NCBI GenBank assembly: GCA_951406725.2
Contig: OX597817.1
Location: 90,148,001-90,212,000 of the forward strand
Direction: 5' to 3'
Length of the DNA: 64,000 bases
DNA from: Octopus vulgaris
Lineage: Eukaryota
Of this stretch, positions 1,691 to 64,000 are shown in pieces. The notes beneath the pieces are model-generated. The model was given only the letters and a program-made list of their open reading frames with translations, made no database searches and had not been told where the DNA came from. The position numbers and the translations under genes are program-made. The first letter of the stretch is position 1; each line of letters starts with the position of its first letter.

Positions 1691-2711
1691 TACTTACTTG
1701 TTGCTTTACAGAAACACCACGTATGTTATAAGCCCATAAAGGAGCTTCTATATCATTGCTCAACCCTCCAGAAAAAACAACTAAATCTCTTTCAAATTAC
1801 ACCCTGTCTATTTTAAAAAGAAATGAAAGGGAAGTTTAGACAATATAATCCTAGACATTCCTCAAACTATATAGCAGTTATACTAGAATGCCCTATCTCT
1901 TGGGAGAAGTCATTCAGGGCTTAACAACTTATTTCTTCATGTTCTAAAGCAGGCTGTTTGTGTAAATATAGGAAATGTCTGTGAAAGTGAATAACATGTG
2001 AGTAACCACTCTGTTTTGATGAACAAAATTAAAACAGTCTCCACATTTAATTTCTCAATGAAATTTAATTAAATCAAAGAAGAATTTACATTTTAATAAT
2101 TCAGTTTACCGAAAATATCTCAAAATGAAATTTATATTTGTATTTTTCTATAATATATTATTTATCACAAAATCTGAAAACAATATTTTCTTGAAAATGA
2201 AATTTATCAGAGATTTTTTATAAGCTCTAATACAGAAAAATACGTATACATACACAGAAGCAAAAACACATATACTTACACACACATATATATACACAAA
2301 TGCATATATTCATACTTGATAATATACTTTGATATACACAAACACACAGATACAATACCAACATACATCTGTACATTTACACATACACATACAACTAGCA
2401 GAAACACACATCAAGCACACAAATATATATATATATAAAACATATATCATACATACACACAGATATAAGCACACATACACATATACATATTCACAAACAT
2501 TCAAATACAAATACTCACACATGCAAATACACAAACATACAAAAATATGGACTCATACTCACTCAAACATATATACATGCACACAAACATACAAATGCAC
2601 GCAAACACATAAATATATACATAGATATAAATACACAAATGTAAATGCACACATATATACATATCCAGAGATTAACCAACAGAAGTAAGAAGTGAAGTTG
2701 TACAATCTTAC

Positions 2712-2788
2712 CTTACCATATATGGAAACATTGACAGAACCTTTCAGTATAATGTACCATGATTTACCTTCATCCCCCTGCCGGAATA
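2712..2788 (-). CDS. RAPGEF4: Epac/RAPGEF4-like coding exon (beta strands of the cAMP-binding domain)
   Basis: ttttgcag|TA...AAG|gtaaga, 77 nt (2+75). Encodes (L)[25 protein letters not shown]; compare Epac2 [26 protein letters not shown]. The gene continues beyond the window start. Confidence 0.97.
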
Positions 2789-3224
2789 CTGCAAAAGAAG
2801 ACAAAGATGACACTGGTGATTCTTGTGGTTGTTTAACCCAAGGTCAGCCCTGATCCAGCATTTTAGGAATTACAATGATATATAATGAAAAGTGTTTCAA
2901 GATGAGAACATTCTGATTACATTCAGATTTTATACAGTATTTAAGACTTCTTTTTTTAATGAACCCTTCAATGTTGCTATGTTTAGCCCCAGGTTAGCCC
3001 TGATCTAACAGACCTATGTTCAAAGGTTTTCCAATCATGACCAGCCTATTTTTTTATCTGGAAGCAGTGTATCTTAAACTACATTAACCTATATGTTATT
3101 CCTTTAGTTGTTTGTTTGTTAGCTACAGATCAAATGCAGTCATGTAAACCCATGATTAAGAGTTCTTGAAACAAACAGCAAAACTAATGATAATAATGAT
3201 GATGATGATGATGATGATAATGAT

Positions 3225-3440
3225 GGAGTCTCCCATTGAAGACAACATATGAGTGTACAATGTTTGATGAACAACCTGCACAGCTGATTTGTTTATAATG
3301 ATCAAATGTATGTGCTGCACATTAGCTCACTGCCTCCATCAAATTGACATTGCCTGTATAGGTGCACAAGTGTGTCAGATATCGAAATGATCGCAGAGGA
3401 ACATGAAATGGAGTGTTTTGCTCAAGAACACAACATTCTG
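3225..3440 (-). mobile_element. SINE-like dispersed repeat (further copies at about 31645-31850 and 46255-46500)
   Basis: Three diverged copies share aacaacctgcac...gatcaaatgt...ccatcaaat...gtgttttgctcaagaacacaa and are flanked by microsatellites. Confidence 0.6.
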
Positions 3441-3442
3441 CT

Positions 3443-4920
3443 CTTGTTTATCATAGTCCTCCAGGCAATAACAGAGGAATTTAAGTAGGCTGCCCCTGAT
3501 GACCTTGTTCTTATAGCTGAATCCTTACCAGAACTGGAGAAGAAATTTCAGGTGTGGAAGCAAGTTCTAGAATTGAAGGGCTTTGTAGTTAACCTAGCAA
3601 AAACCTTATAGTTAACCTAGCAAAACCCAAAGTCTTAGTAAGTAGGAAGGCAGACAAATCATAAATCCCTTCAGGTTGATGGCCCTGCTCGATCTGTAGA
3701 AAAGGCGTAGATAGAAACTTCATAGGATGTACCCAATGCATGCTATGGACACATAAGAAGTGCAGTAATATCAGAGGAAGATTAACTGAGAAAATAGTTT
3801 TTGTGTGTGGAAGGTACACAGGTACAATAAACACTATAAATTATTTACATCATTTACATTTGACGGATACTTGTCCTCATCTTGGCTGATATACCCTCCA
3901 GCCTTCATCAGGCATCTTGGGGAAATTTCGAACTTGGGTTCTCATTCCTAAGGTATTTTTCGATGAAATTTTCCCAAGACACATGATGAAGGCTGGAGGG
4001 TATATCAGCTGAAACGTGTTAACAACAAACAAGATGAGAACAAATATCCATCAAATGTAAATAATGTAAATAATGTATATAATTCCTCATCTCTTAAATA
4101 TAGAACTGAAACACTAGAAATTTACAGAAAATAGACTCTATCGACTGCCAATGGAGTAAGCTAGAGGTAGTTGATAGCTTCCGTTATTTATGTGACCAAG
4201 TCAGTAGCAGAGGTTGATGCTCTGAGAGCATAGCTGTGAGAATAAGAATAGGCAGGGCAAAGTTCACAGAGCTCCTACCTCTGTTGGCAACAAAGGGCCT
4301 CTCTCTCAGAGTCAAAGGCAGAGTGTAAGATGCCTGTACATGAACAGCTATGCTACACAGCAGTGAAACATGGGCTGTGACCACTGAAGACATGCGTAGG
4401 CTTCACTGGATATGTAATGTCAGTGTGCATGTATGGCAAAGTGTAAACATCTTGAAAGAAAAGTTGGATATAAGGGGCATCAGGTGTGGTGTGCAAGAGA
4501 GACAACTGCACTGGTATGGTCATGTGATATATATGGATGAAGACAGCCGTGTAAAGAAGTGCCGATCCCTAACTGTGGAAGGAACCTGTGGTAAAGGTAG
4601 ACCCAGGAAGACATGGGATGAGTTCATGAAGCATAATCTTCAAATGTTGGGCCTCACAGAGGCAATAACTATTGAACGAGACCTTTGGCGGAATGCCATG
4701 CTTGAGAAGACCCATCATACTGAATGAAATTATAGTTGTGGCTGATGCTGGTGTCATGTAACAAGCACTTGTTCTGGTGGCACATAAAAAGCACCATTTG
4801 AGCGTTGGGTCTCATGGAAGTGATGAGAAATGGCTGAGACCCTTGGTGATATGCTGTGCTTGAGAAGACCTGTCAAGCCAAGATAAATTGTAGTTGTGGC
4901 CGATACCAATGTCATGCAGG
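3443..4920 (+). mobile_element. 5'-truncated decayed RTE-type LINE, interrupted at 3837-4108
   Basis: Collinear with the 52800-57140 element (DDL motif, LHSSETWAV, LHWYGHV, GRPRKTW), with stops and indels. Confidence 0.88.
3837..4108 (+). mobile_element. Palindromic insertion with degenerate hammerhead motif (Penelope-like pLTR fragment)
   Basis: Arms 3840-3929 and 3965-4074, unique tail 4075-4108, 8-bp target duplication aaacacta (3829-3836 / 4109-4116). Hammerhead-like gacac-aTGATGA-a-ggctg..cagct-GAAA-c-gtgtt at 3978-4020. Confidence 0.75.
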
Positions 4921-14743: not shown

Positions 14744-15395
14744 CATCCTTTTTTTGTCTCGGGAGACAATGGAGTTGTGCATAAAATAATCTAGTCCAGC
14801 TCTTACATTTCATGTCCTAATACATCTCCTGCTGTGGCTGTGTGGTCCTATCCTGGACAAACTCTCCCTCTGGCAGGTGCCGCAAATGTAGCGAAGACCT
14901 TGTCTGGCTGGTTGTAATGTCATAGTTTCTTGTTGACGTCTTTTCTTGTCTTTCCATTTCTCCTCTCTCCCTCCGTCACTCCTTTGTGTTCCGTCTTTTA
15001 CGGTACGTTGCCAATCTCCACGGTTGCTGGCAACTGCTTCCCAGTTGCTAATATTGATGTTGCAGGCCTTCATGTCCCTTTTGCAAACATTCTTGTATCG
15101 TAAGAACGATCTTCCCACAGACCCAGTGCCCCTAGCAAGCTCTCTGTAGAGTATGTTCTTGGGGATTCTGCCATCTTCCATATGGCTAACATGTCCAAGC
15201 CATCTCATACGTCTTTGTGTGAAGAGTGCAAACATGCTTATTATTCCAGCTTGCTTGAAGACATCTTTGTTGGGGACATGATTCTGCCATTTGATGCAAA
15301 GGATTTTCCGGAGGCAGCGCAGGTGAAAGATATTTAGGCGACGCTCTTGGCATGTGTATGACATCCAAGTCTCACTTCCATACAGCAGAGTGCTA
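14741..15395 (-). mobile_element. RTE-clade LINE 3' fragment (second RTE family)
   Basis: STLLYGSETW...FHLRCLRKIL.IKWQ..VPN...RRMRWLGHV..M...RIPK.ILY..L...RYK.VCKRDMK, with a C-terminal CxxC..HxxxC-like finger. Confidence 0.88.
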
Positions 15396-16181
15396 TATAT
15401 ATATATACACATACACTGATGTTTTTTTTTTTTGCATATGCACACATCTAATATTCAGAAAACATTTTATTATAACTAATCTTTTTAAGAAGCATTCAAT
15501 ACTGAAACATTTCTTTTAGAATTATATGGAGGACAGACAGGATAAAAATTACCATGCTTTTATATAACAAATCTGATTGCTTTTATAAAATAGAGCAATG
15601 CCTTGAGAATCATGTCTGCCATATTTGTAAAAAAACTTGAGATTACTCTTTGAAATCAATAAGTTGAATGTTCTAAGTATCATGTTTCTATCTATCTGTA
15701 ACATGCTACAAACTTCTCAATGATTCCAGACCAAAATGAGGTACACTGTGATTCTATGCTGGATGGGTTCCAGGAAGTGGTCCCACTATCAAACTGGTCC
15801 TTTCAATGCCTGACCTGTTTGTCTTCTCCCACCTTTATTGTCAAACATAAACCAATCCTCCATAGGGAGGTTTCAGAGAGTCTGTAATTGATCTCTGATT
15901 TGAGTATAGAAGTTACAGATATTAAAGTGTAGCAGATAAGTTGCCAGACAAATAGAACAAGCGAGATGTAATGCAGGCATAGCCTACACCTGCCTGGAAA
16001 GGGAAAGAATGATGATGATGACGATGATGACTGTGATGACAATGATGATAAAGATGTTGATCAGGAGAAATAATAACTAATTGAAGAGTTGTGAGAATGT
16101 TCATATCTGTGCAAAGGAACAATTGATATAGTACAAAGAAGTAATAAGCAATATAAAAAATATTTAACTAAAAGTACTTAC

Positions 16182-21935: not shown

Positions 21936-22837
21936 GTGTGGTCTGATTAATAAGCATCTGGACTGTTGCCATAGTAATGAAGCTAAAGTGAAGCTGCTTG
22001 GCACAAATTGACCTTGAATTCTGCTGTACATGTGCACTAAGTTTTAATATTCTAGCTCACTTCCGCTGTTTACAGCAGTGCTTGGAAGGAAGGTGTGTAG
22101 CATGTGATCCTTGCATTGACCACGACAGAGAAAGTTGAGCAGAGAATCTACATCAAATTTTGCCAAAAGCTTGGTCATATCTGCTTAGAGGCCTACACAA
22201 ATTTTCAAAAAGTTTTCATCATTCTTAATACAATCAAGGAGATTTTGTGCAACTGACATCTGAGTGTCTTTTCAGTCAGCTGAAAGCAGTTTTGGCACAA
22301 ACTTGGCAGACACATGTCTCATACTCAAACCTTCAGTGATAATAGACTGACTGAAGCATAACTAATCTGCACATCCTCTGATAACCCTCCGCTGATAACT
22401 CACGGATGGTGATTCGATGATTTCCCCTCACAGCTGCATGCACATCAGTGATGTTTTTCTCAGTTTCTGCTGGTTGCAGGTCTCCCAGAATGTTTGTCAA
22501 TACTGACATTTTTTCAGCCATCTTGGAAACATCTGAACCACATGTATACTTGTGTGCAGTTCATACACTCCTCTCCATACACTTTCTGCAACTTTGTGTA
22601 GGCCTCTAAGAAAGTATCGCCATGACAACTTTCTCTGTCATATTCAATGTGACAATCATACGCTACACATTTTTCTTCCAAGCACTGCTGTCAACAACAG
22701 AAGTGAGCTAGAATATTAAAACTTAGTGCACATGCACAGCAGAGTTCAAGGTCAATCTGTGCCAAGCAGCTTCACTCTGCATGCTTTATCTTCATTACTA
22801 TGGCAACGGCCCGGATACTTATTGATCAGACCTCATA
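21936..22837 (-). mobile_element. Non-autonomous mariner with long inverted ends (5' end present at both termini)
   Basis: 21940-22140 is a diverged inverted copy of 22625-22835. The interior encodes a mariner N-terminus on the minus strand (KNITDVHAAVRGNHRITIRELS). Confidence 0.85.
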
Positions 22838-23201
22838 TATATAAGTCACGACATATGGATTCAAGTAACCTGGTAGTATTCATAAAACAGCTCCTTAGTT
22901 TGTCAAAGCATAAACCCTATAGAGTATATGGTGATATACACGAGAAAAGAATAAGGAGAATATAAAGATATAAATGATGGAGAAAAATGATGAATTTTAT
23001 ATAAGAAATAACATTGAAAAATCATTACAAATTTGCTTCAGTTGTCCCAAACATAAATATCTTATATTATCATATTTAACAATAAACAAGCTACTCACAT
23101 CTGCATTAATTGAAACTACATGAAGTTCACTGAAGATGATGCAGAATTTGGGTTACCTCATCAGATGAGATTGTTTAATTGTTAAATACACCTTGATTTT
23201 C

Positions 23202-23243
<42 letters not shown>

Positions 23244-23312
23244 TATTTAGAGATAGTAGTTCCCTTCATCCCACCATATAAAAGAATTTTAATTTAATTT
23301 AATACTTACTAC

Positions 23313-23426
23313 TCATTTCTCAGCTACATGTGTGTTTCTTGAGGTTCTTTTACGGTTCCTTAAGCACGCAGTGTTTTACAGGAACCTTTCTTAAAATGTA
23401 ATCCCAATCATCAGGCCTCTAAATAA
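23313..23426 (-). ncRNA. Mirror copy of the hammerhead ribozyme, on the Epac-sense strand
   Basis: Reverse complement of the above; tcatcag at 23408-23414. The only difference seen is a 1-nt indel in the stem II extension. Confidence 0.7.
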
Positions 23427-23597
23427 CTTTATCATAGTTCGATACCAAATACTATATTTTAATTTTAACAGATAAGTATGTGTATGTGTAAATAGGTTTG
23501 CCAGCTTGCACAGTAAGGTCCAGCGAACCTATTTACACATTCACATACTTATCTGTTAAAATTAAAATATAGTATTTGGTATCGAACTATGATAAAG

Positions 23598-23710
23598 TTA
23601 TTTAGAGGCCTGATGATTGGGATTACATTTTAAGAAAGGTTCCTGTAAACACTGCGTGCTTAAGGAACCGTAAAAGAACCTCAAGAAACACACATGTAGC
23701 TGAGAAATGA
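23598..23710 (+). ncRNA. Type I hammerhead ribozyme with extended stem II
   Basis: CTGATGA 23610-23616; stem II TTGGG/CTCAA; GAAA 23685-23688; stem III ACA-caca-TGT with GUA triplet 23696-23698; stem I GGC/GCT plus TTATTT/AAATGA across an internal loop. Confidence 0.72.
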
Positions 23711-23849
23711 GTAGTAAGTATTAAATTAAATTAAAATTCTTTTATATGGTGGGATGAAGGGAACTACTATCTCTAAATAAAATATATATTTCCTCATTGA
23801 GAATAATTTGAACCCCTGTGATGCGGGAATTTTTTTCCCTAATAAATAA

Positions 23850-23920
<71 letters not shown>

Positions 23921-23924
<4 letters not shown>

Positions 23925-24049
23925 GAGGTGCAATGGCCTAGTGGTTAGGGCAGCGGACTCGCGGTTTCGATTCCCAGACTGGGCGTTGTGAGTGTTTATT
24001 GAGCGAAAACACCTAAAAGCTCCACGACTCTCCGGCAGGGGGTGGTGAT

Positions 24050-24050
<1 letters not shown>
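23921..24050 (+). mobile_element. tRNA-derived SINE head (family C) inside (TA)n
   Basis: A box tggcctagtgg and B-box-like ggtttcgattcc; CpG-rich; no full cloverleaf. Confidence 0.7.
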
Positions 24051-24117
<67 letters not shown>

Positions 24118-24369: not shown

Positions 24370-26050
24370 AATGGAGTGCAACAACATTGTTAGTGAGTAT
24401 CTGGTACGTAATTGTTTGTGTGTTACATTGTTGTAGTTTGTAATAAAACGTTTGTTTGCAATGTAACAGATAAGAAGTTTATTATAGATAATAATTTGTT
24501 GTTAGGCTGTAATTCAAATAAAGTGATATATTTAATTAGTTTTGATGAATGGGGTGTGCAGTATGTGGGAAAGATGACTCAGACATTACATGAAAGTCTT
24601 AATAGGCATAAGCATGTACACAAGGCAAAGAAGGATCAGTATATTTATGAACATTTTAGGGAAGGTGACTCCAGGTTTAATAACTGTAAACCATATATGA
24701 CCATATCCTTAGGCAACTGCTTCTAGATAGAGAAAACTTTTGGATTAGAGAACAGTGTAGTGTATATGAGCTAGGTTTAAATGATAAAATTTTAGGTTTA
24801 TAAAGTGTTTTGAGTGGAAAGGATGCAATTGATGTGCATCTTTCAAAGGCCATATGAAGGAGAAAGCATAACAAAGGCCATAGAGGCAACAGGTCTGAAA
24901 GAGACATTTCTGGTACTTGGGACAAACATAATAAATTGTATGATGGTATTGAGTATTATAAGCGTTATGTCTTGTTGAGAGCTTGTTCTCTTTCCATTAT
25001 TAGGAAACTTTTAGATAATTGTGATAGGGATTTAACATAGGTTAGGTTTTTAGTTGATAGTTTATATAATAGATTGATTAAAGTGGTGAAGAAGAAAACA
25101 AAGTCAAAATGGAATAGCTGATAATATCTTCCATTGGTAGCTCCATTGATGATATTTGTTGAAATACTATAATTTAGAATAAGAGGACACAGAACCTTTA
25201 ATCAGTTGATGTTAAGTATGTAAATATATGTATTGGCTATAGACTAGGTCAGAAAAAAGTGATAAATTAATTAACTATAGTAAGTCTTGTTGGAGGTTAA
25301 TTCAAAAAATTTCAGGAGCATTTATTTTGGAACATGTGATTCCAGTAAGTCTGAATTCTGCTTCAATGAAGTTGAGCATGTTTATACAGGAAATTTAAGA
25401 TATTACAAATGAGGATCTGAGAAAGATTAGGATGAAAGGTATGAAATAGAAATACAGGGAACCTTGTAAGATTAGTAAGCATAGATTAGTGGAGGTTATT
25501 TTAAGATCAATTTGCGATTTTATAGTCTAGATAAGTCCTAAGTATAGAGTTAAACTAGAGGAATTCCAAAAATGGTGGAATAAAATAAGTGTGTCTCTGA
25601 GATATATTAGAAGGATTCACAGCTTGACAGGAAGCAAATCTGTTTTAAGTAAGCCTGAAGTTAGAGAGTTGCATGATACATTATAGTACCTACAGATAAA
25701 GAGTCAGAGAATTTTGTTATTATTTGTAAAAAATATTATGTGAAGGTATTTGGTTATGAGTTATGAGTTGAAAGTGACTTTGGCTTTAAAAGTAATAGTA
25801 AATATTGCACATTATCAGATAAGGCTACTGTGGGAATAAGGAAATTAGTTCCTAGGGTAGAAAAGTTGAGTGATTCCAAAATTTTGTTGATTCCTAAATT
25901 ACACAAGGTACCATATAAAAGTAGGTTTATTGCAGGTATTAGGAAATGTACAAACAAACAACTATCTTTAAAGCTTAGTGAAGCTTTAGATGTGGTTAGG
26001 CCATATTTTATGAGGTGTTGTGAATGAATTTTTAGCAATTCTGGAATAAA
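24370..26050 (+). mobile_element. Decayed Penelope-like retroelement with N-terminal GIY-YIG endonuclease (Naiad-like)
   Basis: In order: CNSNKVIYLIS...GVQYVG...HK...IYEHF; RENFWIR...Y.LGLND; TCD..KSEFC...EHVYTGNL; VPTDK...FVIICKKYY; IPKLHKVPYKSRFIA. The endonuclease precedes the RT. Truncated near 26050. Confidence 0.82.
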
Positions 26051-52799: not shown

Positions 52800-55061
52800 G
52801 CAGGTTGAACATAAGACTATTGTTTGATTGTCTATGAATTCTGCCAAATGCGAGCTCCCTTTCCAGGTACATGACGCCACTGCCCGCCATCCCAGGGTCT
52901 CTAGGGCCCATACCTCCCACACCCTCGGGGTTGGCACTCTCAACGTCGGCACACTGAAAGGTAGGTCTGGTGAGATTCTTGAGATGCTTGAACGGAGATG
53001 TGTCGATATGTGCTGTATCCAAGAAGTAAGGTGGAGATGAAGTTCCGCTAGGCAAAGAACACTGGTCCATGATTTTCTGGGCAGGGAACACTGACGGGGT
53101 TGGGGGTGTGGGTATACTTCTTGCGGAGAAATGGGTAGATAAGGTAATTGAGGTAGTCAGAGTATGCGACAGAATACTTAAGATTAGATTAGTGCTCCAT
53201 CATGGGTTAGAAACCATTATCTAGACCAATTCTATGACTCCCTCTTGCAGACTACTGTGTTGACGAATGACAGGGACCTTCTCTTTGTGGCTGGTGACTT
53301 CAATGGATATGTTGGACAACATGTCGGGGGCTTCCATGGCATACATGGAGGCTACGGTTTTGGCTCTCGCAATGAGGAGGGAACCAGGCTGCTGGAGTTC
53401 TGTGATGTAAATGATCTTATGGTTTGCAATACTAACTTCAGAAAACCTGCCAGCCATCTAGTCACCTACCGATCTAGCAGACGCACTAGTCAGATCGACT
53501 ACATCCTCACCAGAAAAAGGGAAAGATGGCTGCTTATAAATGCCAAAACCTTCCCTGGCGAAGAATATACCCCACAACACATAGACTGGTAGTTTGTGTC
53601 TTCAGGATCAGGGCTAAATGGATGCCCAGAAGACGACCCGCAAGGAGAAGAAGGGTCTGGAGACTTAAAGATCCTGCAAATGGACAGAAATTTAGAGACA
53701 TATTACTCGAAGCCTTTGACGAAATAGAAGGGGGTATAGAAGACAACTGGAGGTTCCTACGAGACAACCTGCTTAGGGCCACCGACCAGATCTGTGGATG
53801 GTGCAAAGTCCCCTCTCGACCCAAAATAACGTGGTGGTGGAACAATGTTGTTGACAAGGCTATCAGACAAAAGAAACAGGCTTGGAAGGACTGGAAGAAC
53901 GGTGGTAGCAGGGAAGTGTATCAGACTGCCAGAAGGAAAATAAGGAGGTAGGTTTATTTAGCCAGAGGAGAAGCAGATAAGAAAAAATTTGCCAATGTTC
54001 TACGCCGAGAGGACCAAAGACTTGAGGTATTTTGTGTTGGAAGACAGTGTGTGAGAGAGAATCGTGATGTGGTAGGAGAGAAATGTGTTTGCATGGATGA
54101 TGGTTCACTTGCACTAAATGAGGATGCAAAGAGAGAGGTTTGGAGACGCCACTATGAAAGGTTGCTGAATAAAGAAAATGAATGGGATAAAGAGAGTCTG
54201 CCAAATGTCGACCCAACAAGGGGACCAGCTATCCGAGTTGACAGTTCCTTGGTAGTTAAGGCAATTAGAAGCATGAAGACAGGGAAAGCCCCAGGCCCAT
54301 CAGGAATTACTGCAGAGATGCTCAAAATATCTGGCAGTGTCAGCTATAGCCTAGTCACCCTTATAGTTAACCAGGTGATACACGAAGGAGTCATACCCAA
54401 TGACTGGTGTAGCAGCATAATAGTCAACTGCTATAAAGGTAAAGGTGACGCCCTAGATACAAATAATTACAGAGGTATCAAGCTGTTGGATCCAATAATG
54501 AAGGTTACAGAGAGGGTCATAGCACAACTGATTAGGGAGAGAGTCAGCTTGGATGAGATGCAGTTTGGTTTCGTGCCAGGGAAAAGCACCATTGATGCCA
54601 TATTTCTGGTAAGACAGCTGCAGGAGAAATATGTAGCCAAAGATAAGCCCCTGTACCTGGCTTTGGTTGACATGGAGAAAGCCTTTCATAGGGTCCCCCG
54701 ATCCCTTATCTGGTGGTCAATGAGGAAACTAGGGATAGATGAATAGTTAGTGAGAGCTGTGCAAGCCATGTACAGGGACCCTGTAAGTAAGGTTAGTGTG
54801 GGGTAACAAGTACACTGAAGAATTCAAGGTAGAGGTTGGGGTCCACCAGGGTTCAGTCCTCAGCTCCCTCCTATTTATCATAGTCCTCCATGCAATAATG
54901 GAGGAATTCAAGACAGGATGCCCCTGGGAGCTCCTCTCTGCTGACGACCTTGCTCTAATTGCTGAGTCACTATCAGAACTAGAGGAGAAGTTTCAAGTGT
55001 AGAAACAAGGATTAGAATCGAAGGGCCTTAGAATCAACCTATCATCATTTAATCATCATCA

Positions 55062-55099
<38 letters not shown>

Positions 55100-55561
55100 C
55101 ATAAATATACATATAATATTTACACGTTTCTAAGTTCTCTCACTACTTTTCATTCAAGTCAAATGTCTTTTACAATAGCCTCAAGTGGTTGGTGCCTTGC
55201 AAATATAATTGGTAGACTGTACAAAGGCTTGTTATATATGTATATTTGTTTGTGTGGTTTGTGTGTGTGTGCATGAGAGTTGACATTCAAAATTTTGGTT
55301 TGTCACTGCCTGAGTGGAATAGTGATGTGATGTTTACATGCCATATTGACATTATGACCAGTCATGCTATGGCTTTAAAGTGAAGTGGAATAAAAAATCC
55401 ATTACTTGAAAAACAGGTAAACATTAGTGGTAGGAAGGGCATCTAGTTGTAAAAACATTGATTAAGTGTTTGCTAGCAGAAAGAAACAGGTGTAAAAAGC
55501 ACACACACATACATGCAACATATGCATGCACACACATGTACAGATACACCTATACATGTAT

Positions 55562-55612
<51 letters not shown>

Positions 55613-57140
55613 CATACATACATACATACATACATATGTACACACACACACCAAAGTCCTAATATGTAGGAAGGCAGGCAAACCACAAATCCCTTCAAGT
55701 AGATGACCCTGCTCAATCTGTAGTAGAGGAGTAGGTAGAAACTCTATAAGATGTACCCGGTGTAAGCTATGGACACATAAGAGGTGCAATAATATCAAAG
55801 GAAGGCTAACTGGGAAGATAGTTTTTATATGTGGCAGATGCTCAGGAGCGATAAACACCGAAAATGCACAGAGATCAACTTCCACCACATTCCAGGGAGA
55901 AAAACTAGAAGTAGTTGATAGCTTCTGTTACCTAGGTAACCAAGTCAGTAGCGGAGGAGGGTGTGCTGAAAGTGTAGCTGCTAGAATAAGAATAGCTTGG
56001 GCAAAGTTCAGAGAGCTATTACCTCTGCTGGTGACAAAGGGCCTCTCGCTCAGAGTAAAAGGTAGACTGTATGATGCATGTGTACGAACAGCCATGCTAC
56101 ATGACAGTGAAACATGGGCTGTGACTGCTGAGGACATGTGTAAGCTCGCAAGGAATGAAGCCAGTATGATTCGATGGATGTGTAATGTCAGTGTGCATAC
56201 TCAACAGAGTGTAAGTACCCTGAGAGAAAAGTTGGACCTAAGAAGCATTAGATGAGGTGTACATGAGAGACGACTGCGCTGGTATGGTCATGTGGCAAGA
56301 ATGGATGAGGATAGCTGTGTGAAAAAGTGCCACACCCTAGCGGTTGAGGGAACCTGTGGAAAATGTAGACCCAGGAAGACCTGGGATGAAGTGGTGAAGC
56401 ACAACCTTCGAACACTGGGCCTCACCAAGGAAATGACTAACGATCGAGACTTTTGGAAATATGGTGTGCTTGAGAAGACCCGGCAAGCCAAATGAGATCA
56501 TAACCTGTGGCCTATGCCAGGAGCATAACCAGTCCGCATATGCATAACTTTTCCTTCTTTGGTCACTAAACTCTGCTTGCAAAGACCTGTTGAGGCAAGT
56601 GAAATCAAAACCAAAATCAATTCGATGACTGGCATTCGTGCTAGTGGAGTGCAAAGAGCACCATAGAAGTGTGATCATTGACAGAGCGGAGAACTGGCTC
56701 CGTGCCAGTGGCACATAAAAGGGCACCATTCGAGTATGATCGTTACCAGTGTCGCCTTACTGGCACTTGTACATGTGCTAGTAGGGTGCTAATCTGAGCG
56801 TGATCGTTGCCAGAGCAGCCAACTGGTTTCTGTACCTGTGGCATGTAAAAAGGCACCATTCAAGCGTGATCGTTACCAACTCCGCTTCAGTGGCACCTGT
56901 GTCGGTGACACGTGTAAAAATATTCAAGTGAGGTCGCTGCTAGTACCTCCTGACTGGCACCTATGCCGGTGGCACGTAAAAAGTACCCACTACACTCTCA
57001 GAGTGGTTGGCATTAGGAAGGGCATCCAGCTGTAGAAACTGCCAGATCAAGATTGGAGCCTGGTGTAGCCATCTGGTTCGCTAGCCCTCAGTCCATCCCA
57101 TGCTAGCATGGAAAGTGGACGTTAAACGATGATGATGATG
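52800..57140 (+). mobile_element. Near-full-length RTE-clade LINE (APE endonuclease + RT), disabled and interrupted
   Basis: GTLNVGTL, CIQEVRW, AGDFNG.VG, SQIDYIL, KAPGPSGI, YRGIKLL, QFGFVPGKST.DAI, DMEKAF.RVP, GVHQGSVLS, ADDL, GR.RKTW; 3'UTR and (GAT)n tail at about 57128-57140. Several stops and frameshifts; insertion at 55042-55649. Confidence 0.95.
55042..55649 (+). repeat. Local duplication of about 57605-58198 inserted in the LINE
   Basis: 55091-55650 aligns to 57612-58198 with a few substitutions, a 4-bp indel and different microsatellite lengths. Confidence 0.93.
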
Positions 57141-61689: not shown

Positions 61690-61919
61690 GCAAAAATAGA
61701 AGAGTGCCATTGTTATCAAGTGAATGATATTTCGACATCTTGTGTGTCTTCCACAGGTTCAAAAATTAAACTTGGTTAATATATATAGGACTGAGGTAAC
61801 TCCCCCAGAAGATATAGAAGCAAAAATAGAAGAGTGCCATTGTTATCATTCACTTGATAACAATGGCACTCTTCTATTTTTGCTTCTATATCTTCTTGAG
61901 GAGTTACCTCAGTCTTATA

Positions 61920-61922
<3 letters not shown>
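61690..61922. mobile_element. Compound inverted-repeat insertion with degenerate minimal hammerhead motif (Penelope-like pLTR fragments)
   Basis: Hairpin 61781-61848 / 61855-61922. 61690-61728 is the reverse complement of 61844-61883. Minus strand tgaac-CTGtgGA-a-gaca..tgtc-GAAA-ta-TC-attca at 61721-61761. Flanked by (TTA)n. Confidence 0.65.
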
Positions 61923-62544: not shown

Positions 62545-63767
62545 ATCATCATCATCATCATCATCATCGTTTAGCGTCCATTTTCCATGCTAGCATGGGT
62601 TGGACGGTTCTATTGGGGTCCGTGAAGCCAGAAGGCTTCATCAGGCCCAGTCAAATCTGGCAGTGTTTCTACGGCTGGATGCCCTTCCTAACGCCAACCA
62701 CTCAGTGAGTGTAGTGGGTGCTTTTTACGTGCCACCCGCACAGGTGCCAGACAGAGCTGGCAAACGGCCACGAACGGATGGTGCTTTTTATGTGCCACCA
62801 GCACGAGGGCCAGGCGAGGCTGGCAACGGACACGAATGGATGGTGCTTTTTACGTGCTATCGGCACGAGGCCAGTCGGGGCGGTGCTGGCAACGGTCGCG
62901 AAACGGAAGGTTCTCTTACATGCCACCGGCACTGGTAACACATCTGCAATTTCCATTGATCGATTTCGATTCTGATCCTCACTTGCCTCAACAGGTCTTC
63001 ACAAGTAGAGTTTTGTGTCCCAAGAAGGGAAGGTATGCATACGTAGGCTGGCTCCATCCCATGTAGAAGGCCATGGGTTATGGACTCACTTGTCCTGCCG
63101 GGTCTTCTCGCGCACAGCACACTTCCAGAGGTCTCGGTCTCTAGTCATTTCCTCAGTGAGACCTAAAGTTCGAAGGTCGTGCTTCACCACCTCGTCCCAG
63201 GTTTTCCTGGGTCTGCCTCTTCCGCAGGTTCCCTCAACAGCTAGGGTGTGGCACTTTTTCACACAACTATCTTCATCCATTCTCGCCACATGACCATACC
63301 AGCGCAAACGTCTCTCTTGCACACCACAACTGATGCTTCTTAGGTCCAGCTTTTCTCTCAAGGTACTTACACTCTGCCGAGTATGAGTACTGACATTACA
63401 CATCCATCGGAGCATACTGGCTTCATTTCTTGCGAGCTTACGCATATCCTCAGCAGTCACGGCCCATGTTTCACTGCTTGTAGCATGGCTGTTCGTACAC
63501 ACGCATCATACAGTCTGCCTTTCACTCTGTGCGAGAGGCCTTTTGTCACCAGCAGAGGTAAGAGCTCTCTGAACTTTGCCCAAGCTATTCTTATTCTAGC
63601 AGTTACACTTTCAGCACACCCGCCCCCGCTGCTGACTTGGTCACCTAAGTAACGGAAACTATCAACTATTTCTAGTTTTTCTCCCTGGAAAGTGACGGAA
63701 GTTGGTCTCAGAGCATTTTCAGTGTTTATTGTTCCTGAGCATCTGCCACATACAAAAACCATCTTCC
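62545..63767 (-). mobile_element. Young 5'-truncated RTE LINE (same family as 52800-57140)
   Basis: VDSFRYLGD, AWAKFREL, SETWAV, RLRWYGHV, GRGRPRKTW; one frameshift near 63480; tandem 3'UTR units; (GAT)n tail. Confidence 0.93.
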
Positions 63768-64000
63768 TAGAAAACAATAAACCTTCAAACATTTTATTAT
63801 AACATATTGACACATAAATGTAACACGGAAACAATGTGCTTGCACGACCAGCTAGAAGTATCAGCTAAATCATATCCTATCATCTTGAGAAATAAGGATA
63901 CAATGGATAATGTAGTCTTTGATACACAAAATGACAGGATGACCATACTAGAACATTTTAATCACAAGACAATATTTAACCCTTTAGCATTTAAACTGGT

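Follow-up and report, generated by a model that had tools for sequence, protein, structure and literature searches.

A large hammerhead-bearing palindrome in an intron of an octopus Epac-like gene is an inverted Penelope-like insertion

An intron of an Epac-like gene of Octopus vulgaris contains a large palindrome with a hammerhead ribozyme motif in each arm, which raises the question of whether the gene carries a regulated self-cleaving intron or the remains of a mobile element. The preliminary description of this locus leaned towards the former, suggesting that the pre-mRNA locks its own ribozyme in a long duplex from which A-to-I editing or unwinding could release it. Within the window, as we call the whole 64-kb stretch of DNA analyzed, the left arm, which reads on the minus strand, spans positions 23241-23501, and the right arm spans 23523-23782. 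At 261 and 260 bp, the arms are 98.9% identical, and the two substitutions and one indel that separate them agree with the roughly three differences noted before.

Comparison of the arms and of other loci of the same repeat family identified the left arm as an inverted, 5´-truncated copy of the 3´ end (pLTR) of an element, lacking the tail. The right arm belongs to the main copy (plus strand, 23504-23789), likewise 5´-truncated, which comprises ~285 nt from the very end of the 3´ UTR/pLTR of a Penelope-like element (PLE) of the Hydra type. The 21-nt spacer (23502-23522) contains the inversion junction and mostly belongs to the main copy, whose 5´ start is at ~23504. An optional tail extension follows the right arm only (plus strand, 23790-23855); this assignment draws on the family loci, the available text of PMC11167929, and the Fig. 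2 legend of PMC8557442, in which tails are 30-40 bp as opposed to ~66 nt here. The sequence itself reveals (TA)n microsatellites at the left (23201-23233) and right (23855-23921) flanks of the insertion target. The main and inverted copies likely were made together, in one integration into this (TA)n tract.

Several other repeats lie close by. A short repeat of very high copy number (23922-24055), flanked by two TA tracts and tRNA-like at its start by eye, is probably a SINE. Two 151-nt inverted repeats (21987-22137 and 22626-22776), 88% complementary and 488 nt apart, are MITE-like, and the right one has very high read depth. A decayed plus-strand frame (24412-24726; VIYLIS...QYVGKM...HKH) resembles the GIY-YIG endonuclease of another Penelope-like type; it had no match in Pfam and no tblastn match among the fetched loci.

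The host gene was identified through its exons. Two exons in the window match solved structures of RAPGEF4/Epac2 (E = 8e-13 and 2e-7), three minus-strand Epac exons join in frame (one junction joining GTV to LFRQG), and the Epac cNMP domain was the sole Pfam match among the window ORFs. The exon matches and in-frame joins confirm that Epac lies on the minus strand, with the palindrome inside one of its introns. This Epac/RAPGEF4-like intron runs for 28.3 kb from 44638 to 16328, after an upstream exon ending in ...MILRKP, and its donor and acceptor lie ~21 kb and ~7 kb, respectively, from the palindrome. The next Epac intron contains a second inverted pair (3884-4040), from another hammerhead-like repeat family (3265 candidates) whose copies read CUGAUGA-AGGCUG...CAGCC/U-GAAAC-GUGUU; the plus copy of this pair has C3>A, and the minus copy ends before GAAAC. 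A hairpin with ~70-bp arms in TA/TTA tracts (61781-61922) belongs to a repeat family of 490 candidates that often occurs in inverted form at other places, and no hammerhead was seen by eye in this hairpin. Translations inspected by eye also revealed decayed LINE-type RT/endonuclease fragments in Epac introns, at 4344-4727, 14810-15454, 53188-56255 and 63086-63864.

Counting copies genome-wide, as the preliminary description had suggested, we found 776 candidates for the right arm in the 2.8-Gb genome, the best other places being 91-95% identical among the 40 scored. A sample of 30 loci, from which 3 duplicates were removed, left 27 distinct loci of the palindrome family for examination. An inverted piece is present on the 5´ side in 12 of the 27, the window included; at one locus (L026) it derives from an internal part of the element. 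A microsatellite (TA or CA/AC) follows the 3´ end at nearly every locus (26/27), and the tail is present at 17/27. Among the 12 inverted loci, the tail is on the main arm in five, on the inverted arm in five, on neither in two and on both in none. Five longer copies (L091-L094 and L096) contain the remains of an ORF followed by an arm 80-92% identical to that of the window. RT motifs were found in four of these five, and the distance from the end of the ORF to the hammerhead is ~700-770 nt in L091, L093 and L094; given this distance and sister ORFs of 2.5-2.9 kb before UTRs, the element of the palindrome family probably is longer than 3 kb. No full tandem copy of the palindrome family was recovered. 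Direct pLTR repeats around a full ORF were seen in sister families only, three loci of which (L120, L121 and L128) have a hammerhead both before and after the ORF. On the reverse strand of L093, Helitron-like Rep/helicase frames recognized by eye (~2150-4830) adjoin the truncated element copy.

Long inverted arms, the lack of an ORF at the locus and a TA-rich target are also features of a MITE or a fold-back DNA transposon with long terminal inverted repeats. We nevertheless accord such an origin next to no probability, given that family copies share one 3´ end but differ in where they start on the 5´ side, that 15 of the 27 loci have no inverted piece, and that the inversion points differ between loci; continuation of the sequence into an ORF with RT and GIY-YIG motifs refutes it. 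The linkage to this ORF and the recurrence of the layout at 12/27 loci bear out the earlier suggestion of a Penelope-like origin with an inverted partial pLTR. We therefore regard it as highly probable that the palindrome is a truncated Penelope-like insertion with Hydra-clade motifs, made up of the 3´ end of the element and an inverted partial copy, which sits in a (TA)n tract of the Epac intron and likely has no regulatory role.

Neither Pfam nor NCBIfam recognized an RT or an endonuclease in the element ORFs, and a PDB sequence search with these ORFs returned nothing relevant. The ORF pieces of the palindrome family do contain FIQIDID.YY.SI, FDVPMGAPDSA and GGLYRDD, followed by CNCxxxxxC, VVYKC...YIGST, CLLCTHE and N...CKH. 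A protein search of the genome uncovered sister families at ~71% and ~55% identity, in some of which the ORF is unbroken and 838-962 aa long. We modelled a sister-family ORF that is 70% identical to the RT piece of the palindrome family (101-row alignment, pLDDT 86), and the top six Foldseek matches in the PDB all were telomerase RTs (E = 1e-9 to 2e-8, TMq ~0.29), which points to a Penelope-like RT. Judged by this predicted fold of the sister ORF, and not by profiles, the RT of the palindrome family is Penelope-like. A GIY-YIG pattern (VVY...YIG.T...R..QH...E...N) was seen by eye in the same ORF in L093, L096 and the sister ORFs.

The available text of PMC8557442 (Craig et al., 2021) lists as motifs of the Hydra clade, whose members are PLEs with a C-terminal endonuclease (EN+), DKT, a CxCX5C linker, CxxC and CxH around the E and N residues, no CCHH, and (TA)n targets. 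As in that clade, DKT rather than DKG is present in L124, L119 and L121, YRDD is found in the RT, and CNCMDKNHC, CLLCTHE and NAQEERKIKCKH in L092, L093 and L096 correspond to the CxCX5C linker and to the CxxC and CxH that flank E and N. The paired cysteines of CCHH are absent inside the GIY-YIG domain (by eye), and the RWK motif occurs as the variants RLKWK (L095), RIKWK (L119) and RIRWR (L121). The (TA)n target and a 3´ hammerhead of the form CUGAUGA-U...N-GAAAC also are shared with the clade. These motifs, compared by eye with reference proteins, suggest that the palindrome element belongs with the Hydra clade; the Neptune clade had been considered and was dropped in favor of Hydra after comparison with the published Hydra description (PMC8557442, in part). 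The sister ORFs, at 2.5-2.9 kb before UTRs, compare with a length generally below 3 kb for the clade, from which they differ by Asn-rich inserts (ORFs of 838-962 aa). Two young sister families with Asn-rich inserts and hammerheads of their own were noted, one with unbroken ORFs of 838-862 aa (L119, L120, L127 and L130) and one with unbroken ORFs of 955-962 aa (L121, L122 and L128), and in both the flanking repeats are 98-99.7% alike.

The layout of the locus also has published counterparts. An inverted 5´-truncated copy with a one-sided tail is described as typical in the available text of PMC8557442, and Penelope-13_HM of Hydra is given there, as we find here, with an inverted 5´-truncated copy and a hammerhead listed on both strands. 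The one octopus family named in that text, Hydra-1_Obim, has a different hammerhead sequence, so the palindrome family is another family. The parts of PMC11167929 available to us connect the tail with two start sites of the RT and report that insertion in vitro does not require the hammerhead.

Is the hammerhead a property of the family or a chance feature of this copy? The 11 letters of the core are fully kept in 28 of 33 other palindrome-family copies, in line with conservation across the family. The core positions changed at a rate of 5/359 versus 144/3758 elsewhere; this difference is no proof of selection, as the copies had been chosen for their similarity and the comparison set is inflated by differences between subfamilies. 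In a natural copy, L004, helix II is formed by UUGGGGUU paired with AACCUCAA, and helix III by the palindrome ACACGUGU; the 19-nt family-type helix III motif has 115 exact matches in the genome. A descriptor of the core, three helices and palindromic loop matched 9 of 12 sister-family loci (L119, L124 and L129 gave no match) and had 0 matches in 10 Mb of Markov-simulated sequence, as counted with a relaxed descriptor written after the motif had been seen. The sister-family hammerheads have four different stem sequences and the palindromic loops AAUU, AGCU and ACGU. At L123 and L127, the motif is present on both strands of inverted arms that are 99.7-100% alike. Collectively, these sequence comparisons make it very likely that the hammerhead is a genuine family feature, predicted to be self-cutting. 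The covariance-model check proposed earlier came out negative, as no hammerhead was among the 113 Rfam matches obtained at E≤1 for the window, a likely reason for the miss being the long insert in helix II. The span from CUGANGA to GAAA is 16, 36, 68-69, 85 and 100 nt across five families.

Minimal hammerheads are known from PLE pLTRs, some of them as pairs on opposite strands at a distance of 100-700 bp, and a minimal PLE hammerhead had no monomer cleavage and low dimer cleavage (PMC4209133, available text). The palindrome family resembles those hammerheads in several ways: helix I is short, helix II is long at 7-8 bp, position 9 is followed by an extra nucleotide, helix III is palindromic, and opposite-strand pairs are spaced at 100-700 bp. 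It differs in lacking a G10.1-C11.1 pair directly after the core and in having a large structured helix II insert, and the window copy further differs in having lost the helix III palindrome. On this architecture and the published precedent, the hammerhead of an active element probably cut a tandem precursor RNA as a dimer, through the palindromic helix III. The non-LTR retrozymes (bioRxiv 10.64898/2026.07.22.740005, available text) likewise are non-coding, PLE-related and provided with a type I hammerhead, but they are head-to-tail tandem units whereas the palindrome is a single head-to-head pair. No head-to-tail hammerhead units were found in the 64-kb window, which has one copy per strand. 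Ribozyme motifs in introns of signalling genes also include domesticated ones such as the CPEB3 HDV-like ribozyme and the HH9/HH10 hammerheads of amniotes, which are single-copy and conserved across species; the window hammerhead, in contrast, is one of hundreds of repeat copies, is mutated and is paired with its own antisense.

A relaxed hammerhead descriptor run over the whole window matched at the two arm sites only. The arm hammerheads are the pLTR ribozyme of the family. In the left arm, a type I motif (minus strand, 23312-23426; CUGAUGA at 23414-23408 and GUA at 23327-23325) is sense in the Epac pre-mRNA, with the cut predicted between 23325 and 23324. The type I motif of the right arm (plus strand, 23598-23710; CUGAUGA at 23610-23616, GAAA at 23685-23688 and GUA at 23696-23698), with a helix II region of ~68 nt, is antisense to Epac. 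The stretch proposed earlier for a cleavage assay, 23590-23720 on the plus strand, thus lies on the antisense copy and not on the one that the Epac transcript contains. Both motifs were located by descriptor and constrained fold. The full core (CUGAUGA, GAAA and GUA) is present in each arm as described before, and the constrained fold reproduced the stem I with an internal loop, the long stem II enclosing the ggttcct/aggaacc hairpin and the 3-bp stem III. Stem II had been called unusually long; it is common to the copies and not unusual within the family, with a CUGANGA-GAAA span of 68-69 nt, although it exceeds the Hydra rows of File S2 as available from PMC8557442, where loop 2 is 3-10 nt. 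A hammerhead with the nearer GAAA (23634) was rejected by eye, there being no usable helix III or cleavage triplet.

The description of these hammerheads as intact-looking was too generous, as helices II and III are changed relative to the family. Both arms have a G>A at 23622, which creates a mismatch in helix II, and an AC insertion plus a G>A at 23694, both in helix III. The AC insertion was found in exactly two places genome-wide, the two window arms. The 3-bp stem III, which had been described for each arm, is present but is a local accident that results from this private insertion, and the insertion breaks the dimer palindrome of helix III: the modelled helix III self-duplex is at -5.2 kcal/mol for the window copy versus -10.3 for the family. 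The insertion allows a marginal 3-bp monomer helix III with no added stability in the model. The hammerhead folds of the window arms are at -17.3 and -16.4 kcal/mol, compared with -21.8 to -24.2 in L004 and L005, and the hammerhead is not the minimum-energy structure of an isolated window arm, lying ~3 kcal/mol above its best fold. These energies come from secondary-structure models, in which the hammerhead population is low for family and sister copies too; the models rank copies and do not prove inactivity. Given the intact core letters and the 3-bp helix III, the isolated arm may have weak monomer activity.

On the Epac strand, the antisense arm precedes the sense arm, as stated in the preliminary description. 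This order holds for either strand of any tail-out pair and, being generic, is uninformative about Epac. In the pre-mRNA, the antisense arm would be made first and pair with the sense arm in a hairpin of ~263 bp; the modelled fold of the two arms has 263 bp at -433 kcal/mol, which supports, as a prediction, the idea that the ribozyme is buried in a duplex of about 260 bp. Within this hairpin the ribozyme, already mutated, is predicted to stay unfolded and presumably inactive, and the hairpin may be ADAR-edited like other inverted repeats. Release by such editing fares poorly in the model. The hairpin is still at -150 kcal/mol with 50% of the A's barred from pairing and at -65 with 80% barred, and at -388 with inosine read as G, so that the duplex far outweighs the ribozyme fold of about -17 kcal/mol after heavy editing. 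The core adenines would be edited as well, all five remaining unedited in ~3% of molecules at 50% editing.

These values bear on whether the locus has been co-opted, with a hammerhead that is able to act as a monomer and cuts the Epac intron under certain conditions, and a hairpin that locks it until editing or a helicase intervenes. The intact core letters in both arms, the helix III made possible by the private AC insertion, the unusual homogeneity of the arms and the presence of a sense hammerhead copy on the Epac strand all would fit such a switch. We consider it extremely improbable, however, as the surviving duplex and the editable core argue against release, helix II is weakened by the shared G>A, and the 64-kb window has no second same-strand family copy with which a dimer could fold. 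The published behavior of the minimal PLE hammerhead (PMC4209133, in part) argues in the same direction, as does the splicing of hammerhead-cut introns in mammalian cells, where a fast HDV ribozyme did block splicing (PMC2995048, a review, in part). A literature search, largely confined to work outside subscription journals, showed none on an editing-gated intronic hammerhead among the papers listed. With a layout that is routine for insertions of this family and helices that are mutated, the conditional self-cleaving switch is unsupported. An elaborated form, in which arm conversion keeps the hairpin near-perfect, the AC insertion made a dimer-only hammerhead monomer-competent and unwinding frees a self-cleaving site in Epac, has in our estimate only a very slim chance. 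If true, a switch of this kind, in which the scar of a transposon became a gated ribozyme within an intron, would be regulation of a striking new kind.

An ordinary Penelope-like insertion still has to account for the likeness of its arms. Among 21 inverted pairs compared, the window arms are 0.8% apart; one other pair, at L092, is 0.6% apart and looks like a local duplicate, and the remaining 19 are 2.6-23% apart, four of them with spacers of 14 nt or less. The window arms share four non-majority letters as well as the private AC insertion, and arm-specific CpG changes cluster beside the loop, at 3 of 4 CpG sites there versus none of the 8 more distant ones, as counted post hoc. A simple old insertion with independently decaying arms does not predict this near-identity and the shared insertion, which fit arm conversion, a late copy from a lost template, or assembly polishing.

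The last of these touches the palindrome itself, as the locus, or the near-identity of its arms, could be an assembly product, arising from a fold-back or from polishing in which one arm was overwritten with the other. Ambiguous read mapping could yield private changes that are shared except beside the loop, as observed. In contigs from four of 24 public runs at 95%, arm depth was repeat-like and far above that of the unique flanks (thousands versus ~50 in X1), and no contig spanned the locus. At 99% (X1, X2, X12 and X19), the junction at 23500-23535 was uncovered, but these contigs drop sequence, so neither absence nor artefact is proved; the X1 and X2 contigs differ from the window in the flank. 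We judge an assembly product to be very unlikely, given that arms differ at several sites and that the same layout is found at 11 other family loci and in sister families. Three features make unlikely the fold-back artefact raised in the preliminary description, in which the whole palindrome would be artificial: the flanking sequences are unique and have no mirror image, Epac exons on either side keep their collinear order, and the tail follows one arm only. A real palindrome may have been artificially homogenized.

The anatomy, the family, its linkage to an ORF and the conservation of the motif are matters of observation, and the palindrome is a real, ordinary inverted Penelope-like insertion of published layout, with a mutated hammerhead of the dimer type. 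Two minor points stand out, the long helix II inserts, of which the one scanned was missed by Rfam, and the unusual near-identity of the arms. In the several Hydra-type families of this genome, some of which have unbroken ORFs of 838-962 aa, structured helix II inserts separate the core boxes by up to 100 nt, so that descriptors written for short loops may undercount hammerheads. The octopus lineage is known for heavy RNA editing, and inverted PLE insertions, by placing long perfect hairpins in introns, are a likely source of ADAR substrates.
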